Positions 10,942 through 33,157 of a stretch of 58,507 nt of DNA are shown here, piece after piece. Origin of the DNA: a virus (lineage: Duplodnaviria > Caudoviricetes). Where the stretch lies: IMG/VR virus record IMGVR_UViG_3300031669_000032, positions 1 to 58,507 of that record; one strand, written 5' to 3'. Both the position numbers and the translations under genes were made by a program. The notes below the pieces were generated by a model that made no database searches, was not told the DNA's origin, and saw only the letters and a list, made by a program, of their open reading frames with translations. Within the stretch, counting starts at the first letter, position 1. Each line of letters opens with the position of its first letter.

Positions 10942-11050
10942 GCGGTCTCCTAAAAAAATAAACCTGGGAACAGGGGATTGAGACCGCGAAGTTTAAATCC
11001 CCTGACAGGGTTCCCAGATTATTATTATTGCTTTTTTTGGTTCGCGGTCT
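10942..11050 (-). ncRNA. Structured leader with anti-RBS loop (C4/CI-like arrangement)
   Basis: Hairpin 10964-11017 whose loop TTCGCGGTCTC is complementary to 11041-11050 and to the RBS region 10942-10949. Confidence 0.6.
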
Positions 11051-11065: not shown

Positions 11066-11094
11066 ATTATGCGCTAATTCTTTCATTTTGTCAA
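11066..11094 (-). promoter_or_regulatory. sigma70 promoter for the replication operon
   Basis: TTGACA-17-CATAAT. Confidence 0.75.
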
Positions 11095-11103
11095 GTTTTT
11101 TTA

Positions 11104-11580
11104 TTAAATCCTATAATTTATTTCTTTTCCGATTAGTTTCAATCGTTTGACGGCAATAGTTCCTTCTGGATAATAACCAAATGGTTCCTGTGATATGGTT
11201 CCTTCGGCGAGCCTATCGTAGTTACAAAATTCTGGCAATTGCACACGCTCTTCTATTTCGCACTTAAATAAATATCCTCCGTTATTTAAAGCAAAAAGCT
11301 TTGCCTCGTAAAGCACATTAAAGCACATTAAATGATGATCGCTTTTAAATAACCATTCCGGTGCGCTGGCCCATTCATTTATGGTGTAGTTAACTCTTGA
11401 TTCACCATAAGCATCAATTGAAGAATAAACTTTACCATACTGCGCTTTTGCTACAACCTTATAATATCCGTCTCCATAATGATTTTTTTCTGCCAATTCT
11501 ATGATTTTTTTGTGTAGTCTTTCGTTTTCCTTTTTAAGCTCTTTTATTTCTCGATCTTTTTTAAAAATTACATCTATCAT
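11104..11580 (-). CDS. Hypothetical protein
   Basis: 158-aa ORF with GAGG RBS. Confidence 0.65.
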   Translation of the reverse strand: MIDVIFKKDREIKELKKENERLHKKIIELAEKNHYGDGYYKVVAKAQYGKVYSSIDAYGESRVNYTINEWASAPEWLFKSDHHLMCFNVLYEAKLFALNNGGYLFKCEIEERVQLPEFCNYDRLAEGTISQEPFGYYPEGTIAVKRLKLIGKEINYRI

Positions 11581-13029: not shown

Positions 13030-13271
13030 TTCGTGCTTTTTGAGAATTCCCATACCAGTACACCGAAGAAAACGACTCCAATTGCCACGGCCGCTATAGG
13101 AGCGACCCAGAAAAATAACCGATAATGGCCGGGATCCTCGAAAACAATAGAACTTATTGCTCCGGCAAAAACCCCGCTGCAGCCGAGCATGAGCCAGAAG
13201 GTCGCCATTTTTCCGACCCGGTAAAAGATGATTGCGGCAATTAATGCCACTAATGCGATTGCGATTTTCAT
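13026..13271 (-). CDS. Small multi-pass membrane protein
   Basis: Three hydrophobic segments; AAGGAG RBS. Confidence 0.65.
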   Translation of the reverse strand: MKIAIALVALIAAIIFYRVGKMATFWLMLGCSGVFAGAISSIVFEDPGHYRLFFWVAPIAAVAIGVVFFGVLVWEFSKSTK

Positions 13272-13299
13272 TTTATTCTCCTTAAGTTTAATTTTTTCT

Positions 13300-13515
13300 C
13301 TACCACAGCCACCAAATCGTTTTGTATGCCAGGTAAATAGCCAGACCATAAGATGCTGTAAGCGATCTAATCGAGTTGCGTTTTATTGCTTTTCTCGATA
13401 TGCTTTTGCGGGAAAAGTAACCACTATAGTTAAGGAGTTTATCGAACACCCACATTATAATCTGTTGGTAGAATTCCCCAAGACACATAAGGATGAAAAT
13501 TTTTAGTACTATCAT
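13300..13515 (-). CDS. Hypothetical membrane protein
   Basis: AAGGAG RBS. Confidence 0.55.
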   Translation of the reverse strand: MIVLKIFILMCLGEFYQQIIMWVFDKLLNYSGYFSRKSISRKAIKRNSIRSLTASYGLAIYLAYKTIWWLW

Positions 13516-13553
13516 TTTAGTTCTCCTTTACTTTAATTTTTTAGTACTACATC

Positions 13554-13817
13554 ACCCCGGCCAGAAAGGTAAAAGAAAAGATGACCGGGGCTTTTTGTTT
13601 CAGTATCGTATGCCCGGCCCAATGCAAGCGACCGGACACACTCCATATAACTGTTAGAAATTTCACGCCCTACTCCCGGCAGGGTCATTGCGTTAACCTT
13701 CCCGGTGTAACGGGTTGCTTATTAACAGCATGGTCACTTCAGCACCTCCTCGAATAAAATTGCGTTGTGAGATACCAGGACGCGGGCCAGGAGGTTAGGG
13801 CACCGCGCCCCAATATC
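13554..13817 (-). ncRNA. Candidate structured ncRNA cluster
   Basis: Intergenic, GC-rich; stems 13554-13591, 13608-13641, 13643-13733 (multibranch) and 13771-13817; G-U pairs favour the minus strand. Confidence 0.6.
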
Positions 13818-13837
13818 ATGAAAATTATTGTAGTAAT

Positions 13838-14059
13838 TCATATTGATATAGTCTTAAGGCAAATCCAGAACGCAAGTGCTACGACCAAAATACCCGGTAA
13901 CCAGCAATGCCAGATATATTCAAGAAAAGTCTCCGGAATGTCAATTATCGTAATCTTGATAGCTGATTTCTGTTTACCGACCTCCTTTTTAATCGGCTTC
14001 TTTGCAGCAAGTGAAAAAATGTAAATGATTATTTTCTGCAGCACGTTACCTGTCCTCAT
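13838..14059 (-). CDS. Hypothetical protein with C-terminal TM helix
   Basis: ORF; start uncertain. Confidence 0.45.
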   Translation of the reverse strand: MRTGNVLQKIIIYIFSLAAKKPIKKEVGKQKSAIKITIIDIPETFLEYIWHCWLPGILVVALAFWICLKTISI

Positions 14060-14234
14060 GCTTACATTGCTCGCAAATAATATCGTAATTTTCACATTGG
14101 AAACACATCCAATATGTTTTAAATCGGCACACCGGGCATTCCGCATCCCCATCAGGAGTAGACCTTAATGGTTCTACTTCATTATGACACCTGGGGCAGG
14201 TGATGCAACTTTTCTTGATATAAAAACTTCTCAT
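14046..14234 (-). CDS. Zn-ribbon hypothetical protein
   Basis: Four CxxC pairs; CAGGAGGT RBS. Confidence 0.65.
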   Translation of the reverse strand: MRSFYIKKSCITCPRCHNEVEPLRSTPDGDAECPVCRFKTYWMCFQCENYDIICEQCKHEDR

Positions 14235-14252
14235 GTTACCTCCTGAATAATT

Positions 14253-14356
14253 CCCCGCCTGCCCGGTATTCCGGGAATATCAAGCGGGGCTGTAATAATA
14301 ATGCAACCTGGCGGGGGAGAGTTAAACTTAGGAGGTTTATTTGATTTCCCGCCAGG
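14253..14356 (-). ncRNA. Two hairpins, one with an anti-SD loop
   Basis: CCTGGCGGG/CCCGCCAGG stem enclosing TAAAC-CTCCTAA-GTTTA; second stem CCCCGCTTG/CAGGCGGGG. Confidence 0.55.
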
Positions 14357-14378
14357 GTGAATATTAAGATATATAATT

Positions 14379-14615
14379 TCATTTTGCGGTTCTTATATAT
14401 ACGAATGCCGTTACAATTGCAAGCATGGCAAAAACAAAACACAGGACGTACAGCAGGAATTCGCCAGGCGTTTCTGGCACCAGGTACTTGAATTCAAAGG
14501 CTGTGATTCCGCCGATCTTACATTTTTTTTTCGGCGGTGCATCATGCTTTGATCTTGATATTATTATTAAAATTGATAGCAATGCCTTATTTATCATCTC
14601 ATCGATAAGCTTCAT
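14379..14615 (-). CDS. Hypothetical membrane protein
   Basis: GGAGG RBS; C-terminal TM helix. Confidence 0.55.
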   Translation of the reverse strand: MKLIDEMINKALLSILIIISRSKHDAPPKKKCKIGGITAFEFKYLVPETPGEFLLYVLCFVFAMLAIVTAFVYIRTAK

Positions 14616-15043
14616 ACTTCCTCCATGACAATATGTATTGATGGATTTTTGGCCCATCGTTTCGATAGACCATCAATTGCAACTATATCCTCATCGTCGC
14701 CCATAACCAGGTCCTTCAGCACGTCCAGGAGTGGCTTATTGAGATTGTCTCCCAGGTCTGGCTTAATATCCCGGTACTGTTCCCACAGTGCCAGTTTTTT
14801 GGTGTTGAAGTAATAGGTCAATTCTGTTATTCTTATCGGGCCGGATAGCTTCTTGAACTTCTCACCGGTCTCTCTCTCTTGCTTGCGAATCTCATTTATT
14901 ACCCGGTATTTCAATTTATCCTGGTAGGCTCTTTTCTGTGGGGATTTGAATACATATGGTTTTCCGGTTTTACTCCGTGCAATCCCGGCCCGCTGAAATG
15001 ACCGTGGCCTAATATTTAAATACAATTCAATTTTATTTTTCAT
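14612..15043 (-). CDS. rusA: RusA-like Holliday junction resolvase
   Basis: KPDLGDNLNKPLLDVL...DD..IV motif. Confidence 0.85.
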   Translation of the reverse strand: MKNKIELYLNIRPRSFQRAGIARSKTGKPYVFKSPQKRAYQDKLKYRVINEIRKQERETGEKFKKLSGPIRITELTYYFNTKKLALWEQYRDIKPDLGDNLNKPLLDVLKDLVMGDDEDIVAIDGLSKRWAKNPSIHIVMEEV

Positions 15044-15258
15044 TTTATCATCATTTGAAGATAAATCGTATTATTGTTTCCGGACTCATGATGCAATTCT
15101 CCATGAAATGACCAACCGTTTCTCAATGCTTCGTTGATTTCCCCTTCTAAATCCTGCGGTGACAATGCTGATAATAGCAAGCATTTATATATTTGACAAT
15201 CGGCTTCTAATACCCTGTGGACACCGCATTGCCCTATAATATCAGTTGTTTTTTTCAT
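15040..15258 (-). CDS. DUF1737-like small protein (recalled)
   Basis: L...INEAL..GW...G......YLQ.M.K. Confidence 0.6.
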   Translation of the reverse strand: MKKTTDIIGQCGVHRVLEADCQIYKCLLLSALSPQDLEGEINEALRNGWSFHGELHHESGNNNTIYLQMMIK

Positions 15259-15259
15259 A

Positions 15260-15445
15260 TCATCTCCTGTTTATTTTTCTTGATTTTCTGGCAATTTTTC
15301 TTCTTGTTTTTTGATGCTGTTTTTGTTTTGCTTCTTTGCGGGTGAATTGGTATATAGGTTTAGTGTGCTGCGGCGGTACCACACCATCATTCATCGTCAA
15401 AGCTTCCGAAGCATAAGCGAGCCAATCGTTTGGTTTATTTTTCAT
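15260..15445 (-). CDS. Basic hypothetical protein
   Basis: C-terminal RRKIARKSRKINRR, common in small phage proteins. Confidence 0.6.
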   Translation of the reverse strand: MKNKPNDWLAYASEALTMNDGVVPPQHTKPIYQFTRKEAKQKQHQKTRRKIARKSRKINRR

Positions 15446-15728
15446 TAAATTCACCCTTCATTTTTTCCAAATTTTCCTTAGCTTCCCTCAGATACTCTTC
15501 CGCCATGGTCACGCAGTGCTGTTGAGCTTCATACTCATTAGTGAACATGGTATTTGGTATCGTTATGGTTTCGGGCCGACTGAATTCATTCGTCTCATCC
15601 CATCGCGTAACGGTGCACATTGCTTCGACATGATTAATATACCAGACCGTAAATCTATTCACTTCGGTCAATGTAAATGGCGAATAATAAATTGTACCTA
15701 CTCTTAAATCCTCTTTTTCTATTTTCAT
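15435..15728 (-). CDS. Hypothetical protein, paralog B1
   Basis: MKI...L.VG.I.Y...T.V....V N terminus shared with B2 and B3. Confidence 0.7.
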   Translation of the reverse strand: MKIEKEDLRVGTIYYSPFTLTEVNRFTVWYINHVEAMCTVTRWDETNEFSRPETITIPNTMFTNEYEAQQHCVTMAEEYLREAKENLEKMKGEFNEK

Positions 15729-16042
15729 TTTTCACTTCCGTTTTCGATAGCCATTTCCATTTTCCGCTTTTTGTAATTTTCAGTTGCTGCCTTTGTGTAC
15801 TTTCGCAACTCTTCAAATGTATGCTCCCACGCTTCTGATTCAGTACTGAATATATTATCCATGTCACAGGTTAGTATACCAAAAGGCCGTTCACAGACGA
15901 ACGTTTTACCATTTTTGTCCTGGACAGATACCTTTATTTCCCCATCATCAACATTGTCTACCCAGTATTTTTCTATTGCCGTAAACCCATAAGGCCTATA
16001 AAAAATATCACCGATTTTTAAGTTTTCGGCTTTTAATTTCAT
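15725..16042 (-). CDS. Hypothetical protein, paralog B2
   Basis: NLKIGDIFY...IF.TE.EAW...L.KYT.....NY..R..E. Confidence 0.7.
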   Translation of the reverse strand: MKLKAENLKIGDIFYRPYGFTAIEKYWVDNVDDGEIKVSVQDKNGKTFVCERPFGILTCDMDNIFSTESEAWEHTFEELRKYTKAATENYKKRKMEMAIENGSEK

Positions 16043-16344
16043 TTTATACCTCCACCCATTTTTAAATATTTTGCCAATTCACAACCCCATGCCCGCTGTA
16101 TTTTGCTTTGATTATGAATGTCCGCCACAGCTAAGGCGCTACCTATAGCCTTCATGAAACTGCCGCCATAACTTGCAATCCCTCTTGTGATTATCGCTAT
16201 ATCATCCGGATAATATGGCATTCTGGGAGGGGCAGCGAATCCGGTACGTGAACCGCATTTCGGACATTTAAAGACAGTCTCTCCCCCTTCATTTAATCCA
16301 TCCGGTTCTTTTCTCTTGTTGCAGTCTACACAATATACCATCAT
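16039..16344 (-). CDS. Zn ribbon + conserved phage domain protein
   Basis: CVDC/CPKC then YGGSF..A...A...AD..N..KI..AW. Confidence 0.7.
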   Translation of the reverse strand: MMVYCVDCNKRKEPDGLNEGGETVFKCPKCGSRTGFAAPPRMPYYPDDIAIITRGIASYGGSFMKAIGSALAVADIHNQSKIQRAWGCELAKYLKMGGGIK

Positions 16345-16664
16345 TTTATACCTCCACCTTCATCAAAAATTATTTCTATTCTGCGTTGCTGGTAATTTCT
16401 TATTGTTTCGTTTGTGTATTTAAATAGTTTCTCAAGTGCATCCACCCACACCTCTTTTTCACTATCAAATATATCCCACACAAACACCCTAAACACCTCT
16501 CCATTAACAAACTTTTCTTTATCTTTGCTCCACTCAGACGTTCTCACTACAGGGCAATCGGTTTTGCCGACGATCGAATCTACCCGATATTTTCTTACTT
16601 CCGTAAATGCGTTGGTCATATAAAAAATATCTCCAACCTTTAAATTTTTGACTTCTATTTTCAT
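16341..16664 (-). CDS. Hypothetical protein, paralog B3
   Basis: NLKVGDIFY...IFDSE.E.W...L.KYT.....NY..R..E; CAGGAGGT RBS. Confidence 0.7.
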   Translation of the reverse strand: MKIEVKNLKVGDIFYMTNAFTEVRKYRVDSIVGKTDCPVVRTSEWSKDKEKFVNGEVFRVFVWDIFDSEKEVWVDALEKLFKYTNETIRNYQQRRIEIIFDEGGGIK

Positions 16665-16680
16665 TTTAAACCTCCTGTTG

Positions 16681-17232
16681 TTAGCTAATCTCAACTGAAT
16701 TACCATTACTGTCACACTGATACATTTTCCCCATCAATTTGGCTCTCTCGTCAGGATGCATCTCGTATATAAGTTTTTTTTCGTATTCACGGTATTCGTG
16801 TATTGGCGTATCGACTGAATTTAACAATTTATTCCAGCCGCTAACTTCTGCCGTACATCCTGCGAAAACGTAGCATTTCTTTAAATCTTCAATGGCCCTA
16901 AATGTCACTAATGTTAACTCTATTTTTAATAATTCGCAAATTTCTTCGCGTGCGCCATCCCACCACTGCCCGTGGCAATCTACACTCTCTCCATTTTCCA
17001 GATTAATTGTAAACTTTCTGCCACCAAAGGCTTGGGCGTAACACGATGGCCTTTTGTAAAAATAGCAGTCATAAAAAAGACCATCTGTTCCGTAAATTAA
17101 ATTACCTTTTTCACCGCAACTCTGGATATTTCTGTGATTTGTTCTATAGAATTTTAATATCGGTCGCTTGTTTAAAACAACCGCAATTCCTGAGTTAAAC
17201 TTTACTTTTGCTAATATTTTATAGTTATCCAT
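16681..17232 (-). CDS. Conserved phage hypothetical protein
   Basis: AFGGRKF.I.L..G....C.GQWWD motif. Confidence 0.7.
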   Translation of the reverse strand: MDNYKILAKVKFNSGIAVVLNKRPILKFYRTNHRNIQSCGEKGNLIYGTDGLFYDCYFYKRPSCYAQAFGGRKFTINLENGESVDCHGQWWDGAREEICELLKIELTLVTFRAIEDLKKCYVFAGCTAEVSGWNKLLNSVDTPIHEYREYEKKLIYEMHPDERAKLMGKMYQCDSNGNSVEIS

Positions 17233-22070: not shown

Positions 22071-22388
22071 CTATTTAATAGTGCGGTCATTTTGGTCTAT
22101 ATTAATTAATACGAATGGTTCTGGTGAGCCCTTTGATTCCATCGCAATTTCCAAAATCCAACCCCGGCTCTTCACCTGCCCCACAACTCCAACCAGGTTC
22201 GGCTTTTTTCCATTCTGTAATAATCCGCCTTTGTTCACGGGAGCGGATGCGAAAACAGACTTCCCATCACTTTCCCGAATGAGCCGGTAAACGCCCTTCG
22301 CAAATTCCCAATGGCATATGTCGCCCGGTTCAGCATGGGGTGCTTTGGGGTATTTTGGGTAAGTGTTTTTAGCGATCTTGATTTTCAT
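22071..22388 (-). CDS. Hypothetical protein
   Basis: ORF in operon; start uncertain. Confidence 0.55.
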   Translation of the reverse strand: MKIKIAKNTYPKYPKAPHAEPGDICHWEFAKGVYRLIRESDGKSVFASAPVNKGGLLQNGKKPNLVGVVGQVKSRGWILEIAMESKGSPEPFVLINIDQNDRTIK

Positions 22389-22569
22389 TTTGATCTTCCC
22401 GCTCTCCAATTACGGACACAGTATCCTTGTCCGCAAAAAAAATCTTCCGTGTGACAATGTAGTTGTGATCGTTCATGTATATCGTATCCCCAATGTTGGG
22501 GATTGCTGGAAGCCAGATGTGCTTCGCAAGCTCTGGTGTGTTGAATAAAACCCTCATTTCTTGATTCAC
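22369..22569 (-). CDS. First gene of leftward operon, hypothetical
   Basis: GTG start with TTAGGAGGT RBS; P.IPNIGD.I....Y.V..K.F motif. Confidence 0.7.
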   Translation of the reverse strand: MNQEMRVLFNTPELAKHIWLPAIPNIGDTIYMNDHNYIVTRKIFFADKDTVSVIGEREDQNENQDR

Positions 22570-22602
22570 AATAACCTCCTAAGTTATTTTTAATATTGCA
22601 AG

Positions 22603-22784
22603 CAGGGCGCATCCCGAAGGAATCGCAAGACAGTCAATCTTGTGATCGATAATGCCATGGAATGAATGCTGCGTGCCTGTATCTGCCCGTGCTGTATCCA
22701 TCGACCGTTCCTGGCAGGGTTGACGATTTCCTGCTACGATCGAGCATTAACGCCCCGTCAAAATTATATCGCCCAACCTGGGCA
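22603..22784 (-). ncRNA. Structured 5' leader RNA of the leftward operon
   Basis: Multiple nested stems, a C(UUCG)G tetraloop and complementary loops between promoter and first RBS. Confidence 0.6.
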
Positions 22785-22789
22785 CCTTA

Positions 22790-22864
22790 AGTATAATATG
22801 GTTTTCGCAAATTGTCAACAAAAAAAATTATTTTGTTGACAATCTGATATTTCCATATTATACT
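22790..22864. promoter_or_regulatory. Symmetric divergent sigma70 promoters
   Basis: TTGACA-17-TATACT on both strands; 12-bp and 13-bp perfect inverted repeats. Confidence 0.88.
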
Positions 22865-22870
22865 ATAGAT

Positions 22871-23119
22871 ATGAAAAAAATAAAAGTATTAAGAGAAAAG
22901 TTACCGGGGAGAACTCATTTGGTTTCTCTCCGGGTAAATAGGTCTGTGGCCGATTTCATGAGTTACAATGCAGACGAATGGGGTCGCTCAACAAATAAGC
23001 AATGGGGCTTCATAGCTGGACTTTATGCTGCTGGAAATTTCGAGGAGTTAGAGAGGCAGTACAACGGGCCAGATGAGGCGAGGAAGCAAGAAAAGAAAGA
23101 AATAGGGGTGGTAAAATGA
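22871..23119 (+). CDS. Arc-like ribbon-helix-helix repressor, leaderless
   Basis: VSLRV...V.D.M...A...GRS.N matches the Arc/Mnt pattern; ATG follows the -10 after 6 nt, no SD. Confidence 0.75.
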   Translation: MKKIKVLREKLPGRTHLVSLRVNRSVADFMSYNADEWGRSTNKQWGFIAGLYAAGNFEELERQYNGPDEARKQEKKEIGVVK

Positions 23120-23373
23120 AAAGTAAACCCGACGCTAAAGAAATCACAATTCATATTTTCCATGCTCCCAGCGTTAGAGATATAAAAGTTGATGTTCAGC
23201 GGAAAATCTGTCTATTTCTGGATAAAAATAATGACTTCCGGGCCATGACAAGCACGGAGTTATTCTGCAAGACGTGCCCATTGAGTACCGACTGCGCGGA
23301 AGCAAATCGCGGTCATGATGGCTCGGTGGAGGTAAACAATGACCAAAAAAATATACATCTTAAGGAATCCTGA
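23116..23373 (+). CDS. Cys-containing hypothetical protein
   Basis: ATGA coupling; FC..CPL..DC. Confidence 0.55.
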   Translation: MKSKPDAKEITIHIFHAPSVRDIKVDVQRKICLFLDKNNDFRAMTSTELFCKTCPLSTDCAEANRGHDGSVEVNNDQKNIHLKES

Positions 23374-23504
23374 TCTTAACATTACGGTCGAAACAGAAAT
23401 TGTTGATTGCGTTATGATGCGCGCCGATGGGATATTCTCATGTACCAACCTGGGATTGTGGTGCAATGAGTGCGAGCATAAAGATTGTCAGAGAAACAAG
23501 AATC

Positions 23505-23789
23505 ATGAAAAAGACTGATCTTTCAAATGGGTGGCGCGTACACCTGCCGAACTTAATCAAAGAAATTTTCAAATCTCAAGATGTCCAGATACTGAAAATT
23601 CCGCTTACCACTCTTACCCAAATTCTGGCAAAATTAGCCAAAAGGGCCATTGAATTGGATGACACAAAACTGAATCAATTGATGATGAGGCTGTGCTTGT
23701 ATGAGGAGTCTGATCCGTGTGTCAAGGGATATAGCAAAAAGAAAATTATAGAATATCTGGACAGGGAGGTAAATCATGATAATCAATAG
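23505..23789 (+). CDS. Conserved phage hypothetical protein
   Basis: WRVH.PNL..EI...A.RA.EL.D.KLN.LM.RL.LY. Confidence 0.65.
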   Translation: MKKTDLSNGWRVHLPNLIKEIFKSQDVQILKIPLTTLTQILAKLAKRAIELDDTKLNQLMMRLCLYEESDPCVKGYSKKKIIEYLDREVNHDNQ

Positions 23790-24006
23790 AAAAGAGTTGG
23801 GAAATATTATTTGTTATTATCCGCGCGGTCAAGTGCGCCCCATAACCAGGTTGCACTGCAGGTCGTGTTTCCAGATGGGGTTTGCTATAACTAACGATAA
23901 TATATGCGGCAAGGACGACGTGATGCTTTCGGAAACCATCTGCGGAAGTTGCACTATTTCCGGATGCACTTATGCGAATTTTAACGAGGTGAACAATGAA
24001 AAATAA
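23776..24006 (+). CDS. Cys-rich hypothetical protein
   Basis: GGGAGGT RBS. Confidence 0.6.
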   Translation: MIINRKELGNIICYYPRGQVRPITRLHCRSCFQMGFAITNDNICGKDDVMLSETICGSCTISGCTYANFNEVNNEK

Positions 24007-24382
24007 CACCCGTTGCGTACCGGTCGCGAAAAGTGATAAGTATCCGGAAGGGTTGGTAAAATTTGATGTTTGTTTTGATTGCCCGTGTTATGATGATAAT
24101 ATTGATGAATGCAATGTACTGGATATATGCATCGATATTCCTGACGCGTATCATAGCATCCACAATGACTGCCCACTACCCTTCTATGACCGGGTGCGTT
24201 GGCATGATGCAAAGCGCGAATTCCCGGAAAATTTCCTGAACGTTGCTGTGAAGATGCTGAAAGACGGGAAGGTTGTCTATAGCACCGGATTGGCAACGAG
24301 AGACGGGACGTGGGTTGCTGATGGGATGTTTATTGATGGAATAGTAAAAATTGAAATATTAGAATGGAGGTATTATGAGTGA
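23996..24382 (+). CDS. Hypothetical protein, paralog C1
   Basis: CxxC...CPLP.YD.VRW...WRY. Confidence 0.7.
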   Translation: MKNNTRCVPVAKSDKYPEGLVKFDVCFDCPCYDDNIDECNVLDICIDIPDAYHSIHNDCPLPFYDRVRWHDAKREFPENFLNVAVKMLKDGKVVYSTGLATRDGTWVADGMFIDGIVKIEILEWRYYE

Positions 24383-24806
24383 ATCAAGAGCAATAGTTTA
24401 CAAAGACGGCGGTTACCGGGAAGTAAATAGTTGCAGCCAGTGTGGCAATTTTGATGTGTATTATAAGAAAGATGGATGCGGATTTGGTGTCCTAACTTTC
24501 TCTTGCGCGGAGTTATGCTTTATGTTAATGTGTGATCGGTGGGATGAGAGGGTTGCAATTATTGATTACAATAGCATTTCGGGTAACTGCCCGCTTCCGT
24601 ATTACGACTCTGTCCGCTGGTACGACCATAGCGAGATAACTGAGTATTTCGGAAAAATAGACTGCGAATATGTCGAGGTGCGACTAAAGCATGATGACGG
24701 TAGGATCCAGCCGGTATTTATTAAGAAAGTTGGCCTGGGAGCCGTCGACAAAAAAGACAGTCTCCTGTTGGGTACGGAAGTGTTGAAATGGAGACCGGTA
24801 CAATGA
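24375..24806 (+). CDS. Hypothetical protein, paralog C2
   Basis: CxxC...CPLP.YD.VRW...WRP. Confidence 0.7.
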   Translation: MSESRAIVYKDGGYREVNSCSQCGNFDVYYKKDGCGFGVLTFSCAELCFMLMCDRWDERVAIIDYNSISGNCPLPYYDSVRWYDHSEITEYFGKIDCEYVEVRLKHDDGRIQPVFIKKVGLGAVDKKDSLLLGTEVLKWRPVQ

Positions 24807-25081
24807 GTGAACATCAAGGCACCATAGACCGAATTTACGCCGGGTTCAAGGCGGTCTACGGGTATCCGCAGGGGAAATGTGGGCAGATTGCCGAAAAAAT
24901 ACAGAAAGAAATCGGCGGTGAAATAGTCGCTGGACTCCTGGTGTTTATCACCGGTGAGCGGGAGCATTGGTGGGTTGAGAAAGACGGCGAAACCATCGAC
25001 CCAATGAGTGACGAATTGATGGAAACTGATCCACATTATCACCGCGAGGTTCACCGTGATGCGTCGAAAGGATACTGGTAA
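24803..25081 (+). CDS. Small transglutaminase/papain-like fold protein
   Basis: G.C...A, HWWVE.DG..IDP (Cys-His-Asp order). Confidence 0.55.
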   Translation: MSEHQGTIDRIYAGFKAVYGYPQGKCGQIAEKIQKEIGGEIVAGLLVFITGEREHWWVEKDGETIDPMSDELMETDPHYHREVHRDASKGYW

Positions 25082-25352
25082 AACAATAGATAACGAATTC
25101 GTCGGCCTGCCGGAAGGTGAGCCACAAATACCCGGTGAAACTGAAAGCGAACTAATTGTCCAGCCCATATCAGAGCAGCGCATAGGAGAAGTAATAGCCT
25201 TGAGTGATGCGATAACCGACCTGATAATTAAGTATCCTGGAACTGGAGTTAATCACTTTGCTGGAATTAATCTCCTCATAGCTTCCGGGCTTAGTCTGGA
25301 AAATGCTATCACAATATATCAAGGTGTAATGTTCAAGAAATTCGGATATTGA
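25056..25352 (+). CDS. Hypothetical protein
   Basis: GAGGT RBS. Confidence 0.55.
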   Translation: MMRRKDTGKTIDNEFVGLPEGEPQIPGETESELIVQPISEQRIGEVIALSDAITDLIIKYPGTGVNHFAGINLLIASGLSLENAITIYQGVMFKKFGY

Positions 25353-25594
25353 AAATGAAAATTAAAGTATTGATAGATGACAGAATGTATCAAGCGGACA
25401 TTAATGAAGAGAACAATTCTTGTTGTAAGTTTTACCCGAGAAGTTGTTTTCACTCACAACTTTTCGTATATGGTGAATCTTGTACATTATTTCATGAGAG
25501 GCTAAAATTCTACAACAGAACCGAATTATACAAGCGCTGCCAGGCGTGCATCGATGCGGAAGTGGCAGCCAAAAAAATGGAGGTGAAACGATGA
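25349..25594 (+). CDS. Cys-rich hypothetical protein
   Basis: CTLF...RCQAC..AE motif, similar ending in 31201-31425. Confidence 0.6.
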   Translation: MKMKIKVLIDDRMYQADINEENNSCCKFYPRSCFHSQLFVYGESCTLFHERLKFYNRTELYKRCQACIDAEVAAKKMEVKR

Positions 25595-25992
25595 AAAATA
25601 ATGGGCGTATAATTTGTGGTTTTGCTGGAATTGGAAAATCTACGCTGGCTAAAAATAAGGCTGGTTTCGTTGACCTCGAAAGCACCCCCTTCGAGAAAGA
25701 TTGGGATAGATACGTTAAAGTTGCAATACATATGTCAAGTAACGGATATACGGTTTTAATGTCTTGTCATGCGGAATTAAGAGAAAAATTACACGACAAA
25801 AATGCACGTTATTTATTAGCGATACCATCAAAGGATAAAAAAGAGGAGTATATACAACGCTATAAGAATAGAAAAAATACGGAAGATTTTATTCGGTTGT
25901 TAAGTGATAACTGGAACAGTTTTTTGAGTGTTCTACCCCATGAAAAGGATATTTTAATAGTAACGGATTATTTAGAAAATGAAAATCTATAA
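25591..25992 (+). CDS. P-loop NTPase / nucleotide kinase-like
   Basis: IICGFAGIGKST; DLES; YIQRY..R.N. Confidence 0.75.
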   Translation: MKNNGRIICGFAGIGKSTLAKNKAGFVDLESTPFEKDWDRYVKVAIHMSSNGYTVLMSCHAELREKLHDKNARYLLAIPSKDKKEEYIQRYKNRKNTEDFIRLLSDNWNSFLSVLPHEKDILIVTDYLENENL

Positions 25993-26028
25993 AATCACAG
26001 GAGCAAGCGAATATCTTGGGGTGTCAAA

Positions 26029-26223
26029 ATGAAGAAAACGATAATCGGGTACATTGCGAAATCGCATGAATTAGGTGAAGTGCTGGAATGGGGGAGACCG
26101 AATCATGGGATATCGGTTCTTGACGGGGTTGAGGTATACAGCAATATGCTGTGTAAATTTAAGGATAAATACAAAAAAATCAAAATTATAGTAGAAGTGA
26201 AGGAGGTAAAAGATGGCAAATAA
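26029..26223 (+). CDS. Hypothetical protein
   Basis: ORF in operon. Confidence 0.5.
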   Translation: MKKTIIGYIAKSHELGEVLEWGRPNHGISVLDGVEVYSNMLCKFKDKYKKIKIIVEVKEVKDGK

Positions 26224-26443
26224 AAAGAAATATATAAGGCTAATCTATTACGACGATAGAGAATGGCTCATGGATGAAAGCAAGCTCGGAACTCCAACGA
26301 TTCATGAAACCATAGAGAGAGTTATCGCCCAAATTGAAGCTAATTTGGATTCAGATGAGCCGAACGAAGGATTCTATGGATTGCAAGCGGTGGGGATGAC
26401 AGAATCTGAGTTCGATAATCTGCCAGAACCTGAAGGGTATTGA
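26213..26443 (+). CDS. Acidic hypothetical protein
   Basis: MTE.EF.NLPE tail; AAGGAGGT RBS. Confidence 0.65.
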   Translation: MANKKKYIRLIYYDDREWLMDESKLGTPTIHETIERVIAQIEANLDSDEPNEGFYGLQAVGMTESEFDNLPEPEGY

Positions 26444-26451
26444 GGTGAAAA

Positions 26452-26958
26452 ATGGATAGTAAGAATACATTCAGAAAAAAGGCGATAATAATTAATAGCC
26501 CGAATGGTTTTGATGCTATCGAAATCAAGGGTTGTATGGAGTGCGATCATCTCAAAAATATAACTCCGGAATGCAACACCGAAAAGGTTGTCTGCAACAT
26601 AGGGCGCAGTCGTTATCGGCAATGGGAGTGGTATGATGAGATTCAAGCTGAACGTCCGCATTTCATTTTTGATGATTGCCCGCTTTTCGACTGGGAAGAT
26701 GTGCGCTGGCATGGCATTAAGGAAATTCCGAGGGACGAATCTATAATAGCTATAAAATTAAAAAACGTATCTCCTCAAGCCATGGGCGACAAAAAATATA
26801 TTCTGGGTTCATATAATCATAATTGGAAATGTTTTTCCCCTTACAATGTTAATCTTATGAAAATGACTATTCCTTTTGATGAAAAAATAGCGCGCACCTG
26901 GCTGATTAAATGGCCCCGGAAGTATGCCGTCGAATCCTGGCGCTATTTGGAGTATTGA
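26452..26958 (+). CDS. Hypothetical protein, paralog C3
   Basis: CMEC...DCPLFDWEDVRW...WRY. Confidence 0.7.
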   Translation: MDSKNTFRKKAIIINSPNGFDAIEIKGCMECDHLKNITPECNTEKVVCNIGRSRYRQWEWYDEIQAERPHFIFDDCPLFDWEDVRWHGIKEIPRDESIIAIKLKNVSPQAMGDKKYILGSYNHNWKCFSPYNVNLMKMTIPFDEKIARTWLIKWPRKYAVESWRYLEY

Positions 26959-27149
26959 TGGCAGCCGATAAAATGAAAAAATATGACTATTCAAAGACTG
27001 GAAATTGCTATTGTTATACGTGTGAAAAACATTTCCATCCGTTGGGTATCGCACGACATAGGGCAGCGCACCGAGATAAAAAAGAGAATTGCAAGATTAT
27101 GTTTTCAGATGGGACGGTGAAGAAATGGCATTTTGGAAAGAAGGAGTAA
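26958..27149 (+). CDS. C2H2 Zn-finger-like protein
   Basis: CYTC...FH.LGIARHRAAH. Confidence 0.65.
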   Translation: MAADKMKKYDYSKTGNCYCYTCEKHFHPLGIARHRAAHRDKKENCKIMFSDGTVKKWHFGKKE

Positions 27150-27357
27150 AAAATGAGGGAAAAGAAACTTTATATAATTCAATGCATAATCGAAGAATAC
27201 CACAGGGTGGTAGCCGGGACAAGAGAGGAAGCTAAAGAAATGATAAACCGGAAGCTCACCACCCCCGGCAGTAGGGTCAAGATGACAAGGATCACAAGAA
27301 CGGTAGCTATAGAGAAGGAATCATGAATATCACAAGCATCATGGATAAGAGCAAATA

Positions 27358-28323
27358 ATGGCAGCTACAAAAAAAATCAAAATACCTTTCTCAAAATACA
27401 TTTCAATCACCGCTTGCTTATTACTTACCGGTGCATCACTGATTAATCAATATGATTTTTACGTTGCTATTGCCGGGGTAACTAAAGCCTATGGGGCATC
27501 CGTGATCGTGGAGTTCACAAGAATCTATACTCTCTATATGGCAATCACGAAAAATAAGAAGGGCCTTGCGTGGACTGCCTATTTTCTCCTGGCTGCGTGG
27601 TGTATGTTCGCCAATTCTATCGCGATCACAAATACGGAGTATCAAGAAGAAAGTCAACTTGATATCAACTTGATAGAAAAGTATCAAGTTCTCAAGGGTG
27701 AAGCGGTCGCGAAAATCAAACTTGATATCGCAAGGGAAGAAAAGGAATCCCGCCAAAACTCTGGGATCCTCGGTGCGCAGCCGAACAATGCCAGGATTAG
27801 GGAGATTCAAAAGGTTAGAAAATCTAATATTTCCAGATTCCAGAGGGAGATTAACGGAATTCTCAATTTCCGGGGCAAAAATAATGCCGAATTATTAGCG
27901 AAATGCCGCGAGGTGGCCGCAAGGTACGGTTTAAGATTCAAATACGATAAAACATACACGGATAATGGTGAACGTGCCCCTACATCGATTTTATGGATTT
28001 CAGAAAAAACGCAGCAAATCGCGGCGAATCTATTTTTTATCCTCCTTATCGAAATTGGGATTTTCACAACGGCAATATATGCGAAGCGAAACGGTCAAGT
28101 TGATATCAAGAAAAGTCAAGTTGATATCAAGTTGATATCAAGAAATGATACCACGGAGAAAGATATAATCAAGAAACATCAAGAATATATCAAGCATCCG
28201 CTATATTCTGATTTTCTTGACGGCAAAACTACCGCGGATTATGCTCCGGGGGAAAATAGGAAAGCAATGAAAATAATACGAAAATTTTATAGACAAAATC
28301 CAGAACTATTAAAAAAGAGGTGA
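27358..28323 (+). CDS. Multi-pass membrane protein with coiled-coil loop
   Basis: Three N-terminal TM segments, a charged loop, a fourth TM and a basic tail. Confidence 0.7.
   Translation: MAATKKIKIPFSKYISITACLLLTGASLINQYDFYVAIAGVTKAYGASVIVEFTRIYTLYMAITKNKKGLAWTAYFLLAAWCMFANSIAITNTEYQEESQLDINLIEKYQVLKGEAVAKIKLDIAREEKESRQNSGILGAQPNNARIREIQKVRKSNISRFQREINGILNFRGKNNAELLAKCREVAARYGLRFKYDKTYTDNGERAPTSILWISEKTQQIAANLFFILLIEIGIFTTAIYAKRNGQVDIKKSQVDIKLISRNDTTEKDIIKKHQEYIKHPLYSDFLDGKTTADYAPGENRKAMKIIRKFYRQNPELLKKR
27654..28142. repeat. TTGATATCAA palindrome clusters forming a 20-bp inverted repeat
   Basis: 27654-27673 is the exact reverse complement of 28116-28135. Confidence 0.8.
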
Positions 28324-28327
28324 AACA

Positions 28328-28732
28328 ATGAAACAAATAAAATTTAGAGCATGGGTGGGTAATGAGTTCTTATATTGCGATGTGCTGCAGGATGACCATC
28401 ATGCAATAAAAAAATTTTGGGTTGCCGTTAGTTCTGCCGGTATAGAACCGGAACAATTCACCGGACTTTATGATTCTACAAAGTGGCATGATTTGCCGGA
28501 AGCCGATAGGCTCTCATGGATCGAATTGAATGCAGGGAAGATAGGGAGCAGTGAATGGCCTGGTCGCGAAATTTATGAAGGTGATTTGCTGAGCCATAAG
28601 TATGGCGGTGGACTTGTAGAATGTGAATTTGGAAATGGTGAATTTTTCACGGGAGACGTTAGCGTATTGGATGACTCGTTAAGAATTATCGGACACATTC
28701 ATGAGAACCCAGCAGCAAAGGAGAAGAAATGA
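28328..28732 (+). CDS. YopX-family protein
   Basis: IKFRAW; QFTGL.D; G.EIYEGD; IIG.IHENP. Confidence 0.9.
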   Translation: MKQIKFRAWVGNEFLYCDVLQDDHHAIKKFWVAVSSAGIEPEQFTGLYDSTKWHDLPEADRLSWIELNAGKIGSSEWPGREIYEGDLLSHKYGGGLVECEFGNGEFFTGDVSVLDDSLRIIGHIHENPAAKEKK

Positions 28733-29211
28733 AAGCCAAAAACAGCAATAAGCTCAAGGTGAAAATCAAAGGTATGGTGTACCGGTTAACCTATGCGATA
28801 CGCTGCCTATTTAGTTTTTGTTTCATCATGCCGATTAATATGATTGTCGAGACAATTAAAGCGTCCGCCGCCTATAATGCTGAGATTGAAAAGCTTAGTA
28901 AAATATCCCATAATAAGGATATGAAAACGAGAGAAGGGGTGGCGTTACCTGCTGCAATTAATTGGCTATATGTAGATGAAGCTATAGAAGTGTTAGCCAG
29001 GACTGTGGACGGTAAGGCGCTATTGTCTACGCGTGCATTTATCAACACACATATGGCAGGCCGTAAGAATTGGGCTACATACAGTATAGCGGAATTGATG
29101 AAAGAGATTAAAGAATCCCTTGAGACAAGTAAAACATCGGCGGACATGAAGGGGATAGGTGAAATGGCGTTTTGCGTTAGCCGCTTCATGGAAATACTGG
29201 AGAAGAAATGA
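28729..29211 (+). CDS. Hypothetical protein
   Basis: ATGA coupling on both sides. Confidence 0.6.
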   Translation: MKAKNSNKLKVKIKGMVYRLTYAIRCLFSFCFIMPINMIVETIKASAAYNAEIEKLSKISHNKDMKTREGVALPAAINWLYVDEAIEVLARTVDGKALLSTRAFINTHMAGRKNWATYSIAELMKEIKESLETSKTSADMKGIGEMAFCVSRFMEILEKK

Positions 29212-29438
29212 AAGAAAGCGGACTCTCTTTCAAAGCATTGTCCTGCGGCATGTGTCCGGACTGCGGAAGGTACACTCGCTTCGCTAACTTTCACATGACC
29301 TGGCAAGGTTGGGATTCTACCTGTTTACGGTGTGGCCGGAGATGGGGCGATGGAGAATGGTTGCCTCTTGACTTCTCTCGGTATGCGAGAAGAGATAGTA
29401 TTGATTCTGCTAAAAGGAGATGGAAAAGTGGGAATTGA
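29208..29438 (+). CDS. Zn-ribbon protein
   Basis: CPDC...W.GW..TCLRCGR.W.DGE. Confidence 0.65.
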   Translation: MKESGLSFKALSCGMCPDCGRYTRFANFHMTWQGWDSTCLRCGRRWGDGEWLPLDFSRYARRDSIDSAKRRWKSGN

Positions 29439-29829
29439 CAAAAGCAGCATTGAATTAATTCAGGAATATGCCGATAGCTTCAGGAAAATATTTGCGTATT
29501 TTTTAGCGCCTAGCAAAAGAATTAATATTGGATGCTGCAACTTATTCGATTTTGAAATGGCTGTTTATTTTTGGGTTGTGAGTGAAAGTGAATATGAGTC
29601 AAAAGTTAAGATTAGAAATGCACCGCCTTTAGGAATGCCAAAAATGTGCCCATTGGCAAAAACGCGCCTTGCGAGAACGGAAACGGATATAATCAGGGTG
29701 TATACCGAGAACGCGCTGTTCATTGTTAAGGGGATCGATAGAGGCAACTGGTCGAGCGCTGCTGGACATACCGACGCAATGGAAGAATTGGGAGAATTAC
29801 TGGCACGTCTCCCGGAAGGTGAAGGATGA
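29428..29829 (+). CDS. Hypothetical protein
   Basis: GTG start with AAGGAG RBS; I.IVK......W....A..DA tail. Confidence 0.55.
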   Translation: MGIDKSSIELIQEYADSFRKIFAYFLAPSKRINIGCCNLFDFEMAVYFWVVSESEYESKVKIRNAPPLGMPKMCPLAKTRLARTETDIIRVYTENALFIVKGIDRGNWSSAAGHTDAMEELGELLARLPEGEG

Positions 29830-29855
29830 AAAATAAAATTACAGGAGAAAATAAT

Positions 29856-30212
29856 ATGAATAATAAAAAGTTTTATCAACAGGGCGATGTGGTATTTAGA
29901 AAAGTTAACGATTTCCCGGAAGGAAAAAGGAAATTAAAAAATGGCAATGTAATAGTTGAGGGTGAAGGGTCTGGGCATTTTCATGCGGTACAGCCTGGAC
30001 AGCTACCGTTTTCACTGTTTTTCGTAAACGATGGATTTTTTCTTGAAAATGAAAGTGACGATAATATTGTCATAGAACATCAGGAACACAATCCAATTGC
30101 ACTGCCTCCCGGGAAATACGAAATAGACAAGGTTAATGAATTTGATTGGAAACGACATTTCGATGAAAAAGAAGATGAAAGGGGAAAGGCGACAAGAAAG
30201 GTTATTGATTAG
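29856..30212 (+). CDS. His-rich QQGDV-family protein
   Basis: QQGDV...EGE.SGH.H...HQEH..I.LP.G.Y...V.D. Confidence 0.75.
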   Translation: MNNKKFYQQGDVVFRKVNDFPEGKRKLKNGNVIVEGEGSGHFHAVQPGQLPFSLFFVNDGFFLENESDDNIVIEHQEHNPIALPPGKYEIDKVNEFDWKRHFDEKEDERGKATRKVID

Positions 30213-30221
30213 GAGATATAA

Positions 30222-31130
30222 ATGAAAAAGAAATTAAGTTTTGAAGAGTGGAGTAATGCGGTAAAACTTTTGTATGGTACGGAAGGCAAGGTGTCGATAG
30301 ATTCAGGGAAACCTTATTTCCATGATATTCATTTTAGTAAGGTTGATTTCAACAAGGTGGTATTTCCGGAGAACGTAACGCTTTGTGAGTGTACACTAGA
30401 TGCTCCGGTAAAGAACTATAGCTTTAGGAATATAGAGTTCAGGGATTGCTATTTTAGCGAAATAGCCTTTGTGGGCTGTGACTTGACTGGATCAAAGTTT
30501 GTGATTAATACTTCGTTTTGGAAAGATATTAGTTTTGATGGTTCCAATTTAATGGGCGTTGAGTTCGATTGTAGTACGGAGAATTTTAGAAAAGTTAATT
30601 TTAATTTTTCAAATACAAAAAACTTCAATACTGTTTCCGGTATATCTGGATATTTCGTTGATATTGGAGATTCTGGCGATACCGAGCGATTCAACACAAT
30701 GAATCCCGATGAATTTGCAAACGTAGGGCCATTCGTCGTCAAGCGAAGCGGATGGTGCGCACACTATCTGAATAACGTAAAGATAAATAAAAGTTTCTAC
30801 GATTTTCTGACTATGCCAGCCGACACGATAACGCCCTTTGATATAAAGAAAGTAATGAAAAAGAACGATTCGTTTATTATCAGCATAATAGAAAAAGCAG
30901 GAATTCAGAAAGTTTTAGGCGCTGTTGGTAAAGTGATAGAAAAAAAGGACGGATACGTATTGCATCAACTCGATGCCAATAGAGAAAGGATGCTTTATCT
31001 CGAAATGACAAATCCATCGACTGGCGAAAGGCACTTTGAAGGCATTCCTCCCACACAAGAAGTTAGGTTCATCGATCAAGCCCTGATCTTTCGGAATGGG
31101 CTTCCAGGGAGACCGGAAACATTGACATGA
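30222..31130 (+). CDS. Pentapeptide-like repeat + DUF6745-like C-terminal domain (recalled)
   Basis: F....L.G..F 5-residue periodicity at about aa 35-135; L.M.NPSTG..H..GIPP...QAL..R...T tail. Confidence 0.65.
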   Translation: MKKKLSFEEWSNAVKLLYGTEGKVSIDSGKPYFHDIHFSKVDFNKVVFPENVTLCECTLDAPVKNYSFRNIEFRDCYFSEIAFVGCDLTGSKFVINTSFWKDISFDGSNLMGVEFDCSTENFRKVNFNFSNTKNFNTVSGISGYFVDIGDSGDTERFNTMNPDEFANVGPFVVKRSGWCAHYLNNVKINKSFYDFLTMPADTITPFDIKKVMKKNDSFIISIIEKAGIQKVLGAVGKVIEKKDGYVLHQLDANRERMLYLEMTNPSTGERHFEGIPPTQEVRFIDQALIFRNGLPGRPETLT

Positions 31131-31200
31131 ACAGAAAACGATTAGCGTTAGTGTATATAAATGTTCTGTTTAGGGATGACTTTTAAAAAAGAGGTTAAAA

Positions 31201-31425
31201 ATGAAAACAATAGCTTGTTATAATATAATAAGAATTGGTGCAACTGACGATTTATGCGATGGCTGCGAACACGATATAGACAAGGATAATTGCCCATTAT
31301 TTTTAGAGCGGAAAAATGGCACCAATGGGCGTTGCAAGTCATGTCTTTTTGCTGAAAGGTTGGTAGAAATTATAATTGCGGAAAACGTAAGTTGCGCTAA
31401 ACCATATATGCCGGATGAGATTTAA
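31201..31425 (+). CDS. Cys-rich hypothetical protein
   Basis: CDGC...CPLF...RCKSC..AE; GAGGT RBS. Confidence 0.6.
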   Translation: MKTIACYNIIRIGATDDLCDGCEHDIDKDNCPLFLERKNGTNGRCKSCLFAERLVEIIIAENVSCAKPYMPDEI

Positions 31426-31528
31426 GGCCTATAAGATCATGCTGAAACGTGCATTTATAGCGGAAAAGTTGCTAAAAATTACGTTTCGGCGCATAGCAAA
31501 GTTAATAAAGAAATCATGGAGGTATAGG

Positions 31529-31888
31529 ATGCCGAAATTTAGTGCTAAGTCAATTGCTAATTTAGAATCCTGCGATTGCAGGCTGCAGGCTATTTTTAAT
31601 TATGTCATCATTTATCGCGATTGTTCTATCCTGTGCGGATACCGAGGGAAAGATGAACAAGACCGGGATTTCGGCAGGGGAAAGTCGAGATTAAAATGGC
31701 CGTTCTCAAAACATAATAAGATTCCCAGCCAGGCTGTCGATGTGGTACCATATCCCATTGACTGGGATGACATAGAGAGGTTTGAGAAATTTGTGCAATT
31801 CGTGAAAATGACTGCGGAAACAATGAAAATCGAAATTATTTGCGGTGGTAATTGGGGTTGGGATTATCCACATTTTGAGTTAGCATGA
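31529..31888 (+). CDS. Endolysin, peptidase M15 family (L-Ala-D-Glu type)
   Basis: CGYR...EQ; SKH......AVD; GGNW..D.PHFEL Zn motifs; GGAGGT RBS. Confidence 0.9.
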   Translation: MPKFSAKSIANLESCDCRLQAIFNYVIIYRDCSILCGYRGKDEQDRDFGRGKSRLKWPFSKHNKIPSQAVDVVPYPIDWDDIERFEKFVQFVKMTAETMKIEIICGGNWGWDYPHFELA

Positions 31889-32715: not shown

Positions 32716-32790
32716 CTGCAAATAAACTTGCATTTCTACTTACCATTGCAAGCAAACTGCAAATAAAAAAATAATAATTGCGTTTCGTAG

Positions 32791-32819
32791 TTGACAAATA
32801 GCCATAATTATACTATTAT
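32791..32819 (+). promoter_or_regulatory. sigma70 promoter of second early operon
   Basis: TTGACA-17-TATTAT with A-rich upstream tract. Confidence 0.8.
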
Positions 32820-32862
32820 ATAGTTGGTAACCGGGTGTTACTGAATAACTTAGGAGGTTATT

Positions 32863-33144
32863 ATGAAACAAGAAATAAGGATTAATTTTGCGGTTCTGGA
32901 AGATGTAAGTAGGATATGGAATAAGGGGAATAAGGAAAGGTACTATCTCACGGAACGTAGTATCGACCCTTGTCTTTCAGCGTATATCTCAAGAGAAAGA
33001 GACAAGGGCCGGTATGAGATAGAGTTAAGTAACGGGTTCCTATATCTCGAAAAATGTTACAATGATCTTAACAAAAGGATAGAGGAAATTGTCGAGATGT
33101 TGAAGGTTAACAATTGTATGGCTTACGAGCCGAATAAAAATTAA
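32863..33144 (+). CDS. Early hypothetical protein
   Basis: W.KG.K.RYY motif; TTAGGAGGT RBS. Confidence 0.7.
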   Translation: MKQEIRINFAVLEDVSRIWNKGNKERYYLTERSIDPCLSAYISRERDKGRYEIELSNGFLYLEKCYNDLNKRIEEIVEMLKVNNCMAYEPNKN

Positions 33145-33157
33145 TTTGGAGGATATT

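Follow-up and report, generated by a model that had tools for sequence, protein, structure and literature searches.

A conserved hairpin with an anti-Shine-Dalgarno loop in a phage operon and its possible antisense action on operon-head ribosome-binding sites

The DNA analysed here (the window) comprises the 58,507 bases of an IMG/VR virus record, which is classed as linear and has a completeness estimate of 89%. Between two small genes of its leftward operon lies a 50-nt hairpin, H1, whose loop is complementary to Shine-Dalgarno (SD) sequences. The question raised by this locus is whether H1 acts on distant ribosome-binding sites of the phage, as a sequence-only reading had proposed, or serves a role closer to its own position.

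The hairpin, its surroundings and its conservation

Bases 1-22570 of the window are read leftward and bases of approximately 22870-38500 rightward, with a canonical terminator present at 38467-38495; leftward head and tail genes occupy 38700-58507. The PHROG matches in 1-22570 include RusA, an exonuclease, a Sak4-like annealing protein, a replication initiator, a DnaC-like loader, and several methyltransferases, and all family-assigned genes in this part are on the minus strand. Also on the minus strand, 15435-16715 contains a tandem array of three or four small paralogues (97-124 aa) whose start regions are repeated. Both ends of the window were matched at 100% by an IMG/VR contig of 9,248 nt, L077 (1,502 + 107 nt; 57006-58507 and 1-107), which supplied the 7,639-nt gap between them. 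Since L077 bridges both window ends, the phage genome is, as judged from this overlap, approximately 66.1 kb and circular or circularly permuted, a size consistent with the completeness estimate. The gap contains two packaging genes:

L077:2306-3829, large terminase gene
L077:3887-5230, portal gene

Iteron-like repeats of TCAAGTTGATATCAAG, direct and inverted, were found at 27654-27673 and 28095-28145, in or beside a 321-aa gene (27358-28323), and the region 27654-28145 is a candidate replication origin. H1 itself was considered as a cos/pac site or a replication origin and was rejected, as the terminase genes lie approximately 14 kb off, the initiator gene lies approximately 4 kb off, and the iteron-like repeats are located elsewhere.

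The features around H1 are as follows.

14612-15043, RusA gene
14379-14615, minus strand, 78-aa gene with a C-terminal hydrophobic segment (membrane protein), upstream of H1
14307-14356, minus strand, H1, 50-nt hairpin from the fold, invariant in 5/5 sequences
14323-14339, minus strand, inner hairpin UAAAC-CUCCUAA-GUUUA, with the anti-SD loop at 14328-14334 and the 13-mer core at 14325-14337
14296-14366, minus strand, possible outer AU helix, with which H1 would span approximately 71 nt, from consensus and single-sequence fold prediction
14253-14290, minus strand, H2, second GC-rich hairpin (GCCCCGC..CCCGG-AAUA-CCGGG..GCGGGG), 16 nt downstream of H1
14236-14382, minus strand, 48-aa ORF filling the gap, its ATG overlapping the upstream stop (ATGA) and its stop 1 nt before the next ATG
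14046-14234, minus strand, 62-aa Cys-rich (zinc-ribbon-like) gene downstream of H1, with the SD AGGAGG at 14239-14244
13771-13817, minus strand, hairpin A, GC-rich from the fold, with the anti-SD loop CUAACCUCCU

H1 and H2 occupy the 144-nt gap between the 78-aa gene and the 62-aa gene, downstream of RusA. H1 consists of a 9-bp GC clamp (CCUGGCGGG/CCCGCCAGG), an internal loop of 8+7 nt, a 5-bp inner stem, and a 7-nt loop. Its minus-strand fold reached -19.3 kcal/mol (z -4.92), which was equalled by none of 200 shuffles, and the single-sequence fold predicted for H1 with the outer AU helix reached -21.7 kcal/mol. The sequence-only reading had described a minus-strand GC stem enclosing TAAAC-CTCCTAA-GTTTA, and the fold of 14307-14356 agreed with both this description and its coordinates. 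H1 was rejected as a Rho-independent terminator, for, like H2, it lacks a U tract, its clamp arms stand 32 nt apart, and its tail is UUGCAUUAUUAUUAC; the terminator scan of the window flagged neither H1 nor H2, though it flagged the terminator at 38467-38495. Promoter and terminator scans flagged neither element beside H1. A role as a frameshift stimulator was also rejected, the only A-run being approximately 25 nt from the hairpin. Rfam gave no family at the gathering score for the whole window. At E values up to 10 over 13200-14500, there were three weak matches to other families, none of them on H1, and over 22540-22900 the matches were weak and sub-threshold only.

Relatives of this region were identified by RusA alignment against metagenome contigs, with at least 586 pattern matches, and four relatives (L070-L073) were among the matches listed. 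These four contigs shared 86-90% DNA identity with the window over the region. H1 was identical in all five sequences, so that the loop, whose lack of conservation in relatives was among the refuting outcomes named in the sequence-only reading, is invariant together with its stems. In a four-sequence alignment of approximately 2.2 kb, the longest invariant run was 14357-14307 (51 nt), which is the hairpin itself, and the second-longest was a run of 44 nt within RusA. Meanwhile, 168 of the 950 columns in 15029-14083 were variable. By arithmetic, a preset stretch of 50 nt would be invariant by chance with a probability of approximately 6e-5 at a uniform rate and approximately 5e-3 at the best-conserved coding rate. 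The sequence and fold of H1 are thus established together with its conservation, which is, judging from these alignments, real. None of the 35 predicted pairs in the H1/H2 region carried a double change, and all 14 H1 pairs were invariant in the five sequences; therefore, covariation is uninformative either way.

The five sequences also bear signs of exchange around the hairpins. All four combinations of two upstream-gene alleles and two H2 alleles are present among them. L072 carries a deletion of approximately 1.96 kb, in which the 3' arm of H2 is joined to 12294 (L072:4780-4800), and, among the contigs of four DNA sequencing runs, those of X4 and X6 join 14302 to 15751. With the L072 deletion, the 62-aa gene, hairpin A, and the methyltransferase are lost, and the HNH endonuclease gene is without its first 37 codons. 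Recombination within the invariant run may contribute to how conserved H1 appears.

Outside these contigs, relatives were scarce. Among GenBank phages, a DNA near-match search found no relative of the H1 region and tblastn found none of the 62-aa protein; the 477-aa protein, a DNA methylase, had distant matches only. Single-protein searches of IMG/VR with RusA, the 62-aa protein, and the exonuclease yielded no relative. DNA patterns gave 30 IMG/VR loci for the inner hairpin, of which none aligned to the window in blastn, 32 for the clamp, of which none was related, and six for the operon-head 19-mer described below, of which one (L036) was related. In species genomes, the clamp-plus-loop pattern had two matches in Bacteroidales assemblies, which had no similarity to the window and were taken as chance. 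Among the sequencing runs listed for the phage, none was an RNA run. The protein database contained one homologue of the 62-aa protein (81% identity) and two of RusA, and a Pfam search of the 62-aa protein gave weak sub-threshold zinc-finger matches.

The operon-head cassette and its predicted pairing with H1

With up to one mismatch allowed, AACTTAGGAGGTT occurred at exactly three sites in the window, 14325-14337 (+), 22573-22585 (-), and 32847-32859 (+), compared with a shuffled expectation of 0.07 on average; none of 100 shuffles reached three. All three sites are exact, in agreement with the earlier claim that the 13-nt core of H1 is exactly complementary to two ribosome sites. The sites and their promoters are listed here.

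22570-22588, minus strand, target 1, 19-mer AAUAAC-UUAGGAG-GUUAUU directly before the GUG of the first leftward-operon gene (22369-22569)
32844-32862, plus strand, target 2, the identical 19-mer directly before the AUG of gene 32863-33144
32791-32819, plus strand, promoter of the target 2 cassette, sigma-70-type TTGACA, 17 nt, TATTAT, as read from the sequence
22790-22818, minus strand, leftward promoter TTGACA-17-TATACT, 11/12 consensus positions

The stretch shared by the two operon-first genes is even longer than the identical 19-mer that had been reported before them: the arms 22549-22588 and 32844-32883 are 90% complementary over 40 nt, the first seven codons included. Relative to their promoters, the cassette sites sit at approximately +25 and approximately +200, and the equivalent promoter in L036 is TTGACA-17-TATAAT. 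A transcript from the leftward promoter should, from the layout of the window, contain both target 1 and H1; the structure of the leftward 5' leader was not unusual (z -0.64). The region 22790-22864 holds two divergent, near-identical sigma-70-type promoters (TTGACAAT…CATATTATACT) inside an inverted repeat of 37 nt. Just 6 nt separate the end of the rightward promoter from the ATG at 22871, and the gene that starts there may be translated from a leaderless mRNA.

The target SD had also been placed in a hairpin loop, which holds in part. The SD is partly in the loop; however, the minimum-energy folds of the two target hairpins were weak (-4.1 and -3.8 kcal/mol), with an 8-bp stem and a loop of only 3 nt, AGG. 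Alternatively, the target hairpins can adopt a 6-bp stem with a 7-nt loop.

A third copy of the cassette is present in the gap supplied by L077, where a promoter, a leader hairpin, and a ribosome-site hairpin stand at the head of the packaging operon. Its loop has a 1-nt deletion (UUGGAG), which weakened the duplex with H1 to -15.0 kcal/mol, and no complement of this loop variant was found in the window. In L078, a more distant relative, the packaging-operon cassette has the full 13-mer and matches H1 over 15 nt, and the 3' flank differs. L036 retains the exact 19-mer before a different gene, and a contig of run X9 diverges 6 nt past the start codon at 32863. The 13-mer is retained in L036 and L078 despite a differing promoter, a differing downstream gene, and, in L078, a differing 3' flank, and all full-13-mer copies of the cassette carry the identical 13-mer. 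Since the cassette also heads the packaging operon, the targets are operon heads in general and not only early genes. Read in this way from the sequences, the matching sites are a reusable operon-head cassette rather than an early-gene mark. The shut-off of early genes proposed in the sequence-only reading keeps its two sites, but "early" is too narrow, the same cassette heading the packaging operon in L077 and L078.

The duplex energies of the H1 core were calculated for 83 sense-strand SD start sites. The sites at 32863 (-20.3 kcal/mol) and 22569 (-20.1 kcal/mol) ranked first and second, and the third-best, that of the Sak4-like gene, reached -16.2 kcal/mol; the median for 86 start sites on both strands was -10.9. 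This ranking of partners is established, and the two sites named beforehand are the best of the 83 by a margin of approximately 4 kcal/mol. The longest exact complements to the H1 core among start sites were 13, 13, 11, and 10 nt. Opening costs were 0.06 kcal/mol for the H1 loop, 2.55 kcal/mol for the H1 13-mer, and 4.23 and 5.57 kcal/mol for the targets. With -18.6 kcal/mol for the 13-bp duplex, the net energy after opening is by arithmetic approximately -10.5 to -11.8 kcal/mol. If an anti-SD hexamer is taken as given, the seven bases flanking it would agree with one or another of the 24 distinct AGGAGG contexts with a probability of 0.0028.

Furthermore, local alignment of the plus strand of H1 with either start region gave 19 matching positions out of 21, with two gaps of one base each and the start codon included, and scored 28 against a maximum of 25 in 300 shuffles. 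This alignment would fit selection for pairing, and it would fit equally well if H1 arose from a start region copied in inverted orientation. The other proposal made for the hairpin, mimicry of the 16S 3' end, drew no support other than the resemblance common to any anti-SD sequence.

Related structures and rival explanations

H1 is not the only structured element of this phage. Hairpin A opens a structured non-coding stretch of approximately 300 nt (13530-13850, minus strand; -110.5 kcal/mol, z -4.63). Its search against sense-strand start sites gave no outstanding distant target. One of its pairs is compensatory (G-C to A-U), which was not significant (178 of 500 shuffles; three distinct sequences). 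Hairpin A is followed by a 36-nt invariant run and then by a 14-codon mini-ORF with a strong SD, whose start is GTG in the window and ATG in three relatives, and a 51-aa ORF in this stretch (13533-13688) is broken by 1-nt indels in relatives. The minus strand at approximately 13555-13605 carries a GC hairpin that follows an A-run and has no U-run behind it; taken on the plus strand, this hairpin has the form of a canonical terminator (…GACCGGGGCTTTTTGTTTC) lying within the minus-strand operon, and its weak Rfam match to PsrR1 (E 3.6) is confined to the terminator part. A 67-nt intergenic GC-rich hairpin element occurs in two copies of 97% identity (33697-33763 and 34518-34584) and again at L036:1262-1345, L036:1908-1958, and L077:738-831, always just before a ribosome-binding site. 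The gene that starts at 10941 has its SD in the 3' arm of a perfect 8-bp GC hairpin (10942-10987, minus strand), and just upstream, at 11066-11117, there is a strong divergent promoter-like pair with 11/12 consensus positions each.

Against this background, the main rival to the antisense reading is a cis-acting RNA structure, which we regard as somewhat unlikely. H1 would then act in its own mRNA, either with H2 as an element of mRNA processing or stability, such as an RNase III-type or RNase E/Y-flanked hairpin, or through a pseudoknot of its anti-SD loop with the next SD, 85 nt downstream, which would set the translation of the next gene. The 13-nt match to the operon heads would be a by-product of the origin of H1 from an inverted ribosome-site copy. 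Such an origin is possible because SD-in-loop ribosome sites are common in the phage, in which 42 hairpins have GGAG in the loop, approximately 10 of them directly before a start codon. Hairpin A shares the design of H1, a GC stem with an anti-SD loop; it follows the stop of a small membrane-protein gene, stands 40 nt before a strong SD, and is without a specific distant target, which favours the cis-acting role. The loops of both hairpins pair over 7 nt (AGGAGGU) with the next SD, at -12.1 kcal/mol for H1 and -13.8 kcal/mol for hairpin A, GC-rich intergenic hairpins recur in the phage, including that at 10942-10987, and the mosaic breakpoints are located at hairpins. Nevertheless, the distant sites match H1 far better (13 nt, -20 kcal/mol) than does this adjacent SD, and the invariance extends beyond the CCUCCU core to the entire inner hairpin. 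It is improbable, in our estimation, that H1 works at the DNA level, as a 13-bp AAC-TTAGGAG-GTT site bound by a phage regulator (operator or roadblock) or as a recombination linker of mosaic phages. The three 13-bp sites are identical whichever strand is read and both arms are palindromic, and the four flanking-allele combinations, the L072 deletion junction, and the joint of runs X4 and X6 would suit a linker. However, the arms differ between the sites (TAAAC/GTTTA versus AATAAC/GTTATT) and the centre is identical, the reverse of the usual pattern of dimeric DNA binders; the GC clamp would have no operator role, yet it is as invariant as the core; the distances of the sites from their promoters argue against such binding; and a recombination linker would still require a reason for its conservation.

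Two further explanations concern the strand and the coding content of the gap, both of which the sequence-only reading had entered as caveats. More pairs do form on the plus strand (12+7 versus 9+5), where the fold of H1 is stronger (-25.8 versus -19.3 kcal/mol) because of G-U pairs that are impossible on the minus strand. A functional plus-strand RNA, a short antisense transcript whose 5' hairpin mimics the operon-head hairpin as a decoy for its binder, is nonetheless very improbable. Its start might be at TGTAATAAT, an extended -10-like motif (14291-14299; TG-n-AATAAT) that ends 7 nt before H1, and the plus strand also offers an SD, 5 nt, and TTG at a spacing found in real cassettes. The motif has no -35 element, though, and was left unflagged by the promoter scan; the plus-strand ORFs behind it are 8 codons long or broken in relatives, and the exclusive use of the minus strand by the family-assigned genes of 1-22570 speaks against it as well. 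The plus-strand ORF after H1 (14357-14491) is interrupted by stop codons in L070, L071, and L072 and lacks its start codon in L073, and the 78-aa minus-strand protein is conserved in all five sequences despite many DNA changes, which indicates that the minus strand is the message and, by these reading frames, the coding strand at H1. The overlapping 48-aa ORF (14236-14382) is likewise present. We give a small chance to the explanation that the gap encodes this small protein, coupled translationally to both neighbours, with the hairpins incidental or modulating its translation. The ORF is open in all five sequences (44-49 aa), its two junctions with the neighbouring genes are tight, and separate +1 and +2 insertions in L070 and L073 sum to 3 nt and keep its frame. 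By contrast, five of six substitutions, a number too small for formal testing, alter a residue, and the altered residues include two, I to N and F to S, at its hydrophobic start; the C-terminus is lost in L071 and L072, its ATG has no preceding SD, and the invariant run tracks the borders of the hairpin and not those of the ORF. It had no Pfam match, and a search of 5.8 billion proteins returned two, the window's own and the L073 form. A coding role of the 48-aa ORF is possible from its open frame, but it would not be the main explanation.

The antisense reading is itself opposed by some of these observations. CCTCCT occurs six times on the sense strands, so such hexamers are not unique to H1. 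The anti-SD loop of hairpin A, which lacks an outstanding target, is a hint that loops of this kind act generically or in cis, and those of this phage may also work locally.

Known RNA regulators and the proposed action of H1

To our knowledge, few phage RNAs control ribosome-binding sites in trans, the standard example being c4 of P1/P7. This RNA is processed by RNase P. According to a 2025 review and a 2021 paper, c4 of the immI operon is phage-encoded and operon-transcribed, and short complements presented in its loops block translation at a ribosome-binding-site region (PMC12197685, PMC8198154). The loop region of H1 similarly complements the ribosome-binding regions of phage genes, with 13 nt exact at two sites. 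However, c4 has two complementary loops and its target just downstream in its own operon (icd/ant), whereas H1 has one loop, and of its best targets, one is 8.2 kb upstream within its own transcript and one belongs to another operon. The c4 covariance model of Rfam did not match H1, which by sequence is not a member of the c4 family.

H1 may also resemble CopA/CopT, RNA I/RNA II, and RNAIII with rot or coa, in which two hairpins carry complementary apical loops of 6-8 nt; in the pairing of Staphylococcus RNAIII with rot or coa mRNA, a C-rich loop meets a hairpin-borne SD. Kissing regulators of this kind are separate RNAs, each made from a promoter of its own and ended by its own terminator; neither element was flagged for H1. 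The 7-nt loop of H1 is open, and its predicted target hairpins are weak (-4 kcal/mol). The sar RNA of P22 and the OOP RNA of lambda are small phage cis-antisense RNAs that shut off a gene through its ribosome-binding site or gene end. Both are made from the opposite strand and complement their target in full, whereas the targets of H1 are distant and matched over 13 nt (19/21 with bulges). The early mRNA of T7 contains irregular intercistronic RNase III hairpins of approximately 50 nt with an internal loop. H1 is likewise an irregular hairpin of approximately 50 nt with an internal loop between cistrons of a polycistronic mRNA, but its upper stem is 5 bp, and the T7 sites are not known to carry an anti-SD loop that matches ribosome sites elsewhere. 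Should H1 act in the way suggested here, it would be a new form of a known type of antisense regulation at ribosome-binding sites.

The reading to which we commit is an RNA-level role, which H1 would exert by pairing of its anti-SD with SD sequences. In its most likely form, which is plausible and which we hold tentatively, H1 would be an antisense RNA hairpin acting on the operon-head cassettes, like the c4 RNA of P1. Here we infer an active RNA species, its pairing, and an effect on translation. H1 would be embedded in the long leftward polycistronic transcript, with its GC clamp holding out the anti-SD loop CUCCUAA. Either in the mRNA or after excision at the AU-rich single-stranded flanks, it would contact AAUAAC-UUAGGAG-GUUAUU loop to loop. 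The contact may extend to a 13-bp duplex and, with two bulges, to 19 of 21 positions, through the start codon. Ribosome entry would then be blocked at the first cistron of the cassette-bearing operons. The packaging-operon cassette fits poorly with a simple early shut-off. A wider version of the antisense reading, which we consider doubtful, is that the one 13-nt seed of H1 times first-cistron translation of every operon, as a genome-wide anti-ribosome-site RNA of which hairpin A would be a second member. As transcription reached H1, its loop would kiss the SD hairpin cassette heading each sigma-70-type operon, which would cover the two exact copies in the window and the weakened copy before the terminase genes.

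If the antisense reading is true, a promoterless hairpin inside an operon, together with a reusable ribosome-site cassette, would couple the progress of transcription to translational control of several operons, and a GC-clamped anti-SD loop with matching SD hairpins would be a search signature for uncultivated phages. If H1 is instead a cis-acting or processing element, it would be a clear non-coding element more strictly conserved than the adjacent genes.
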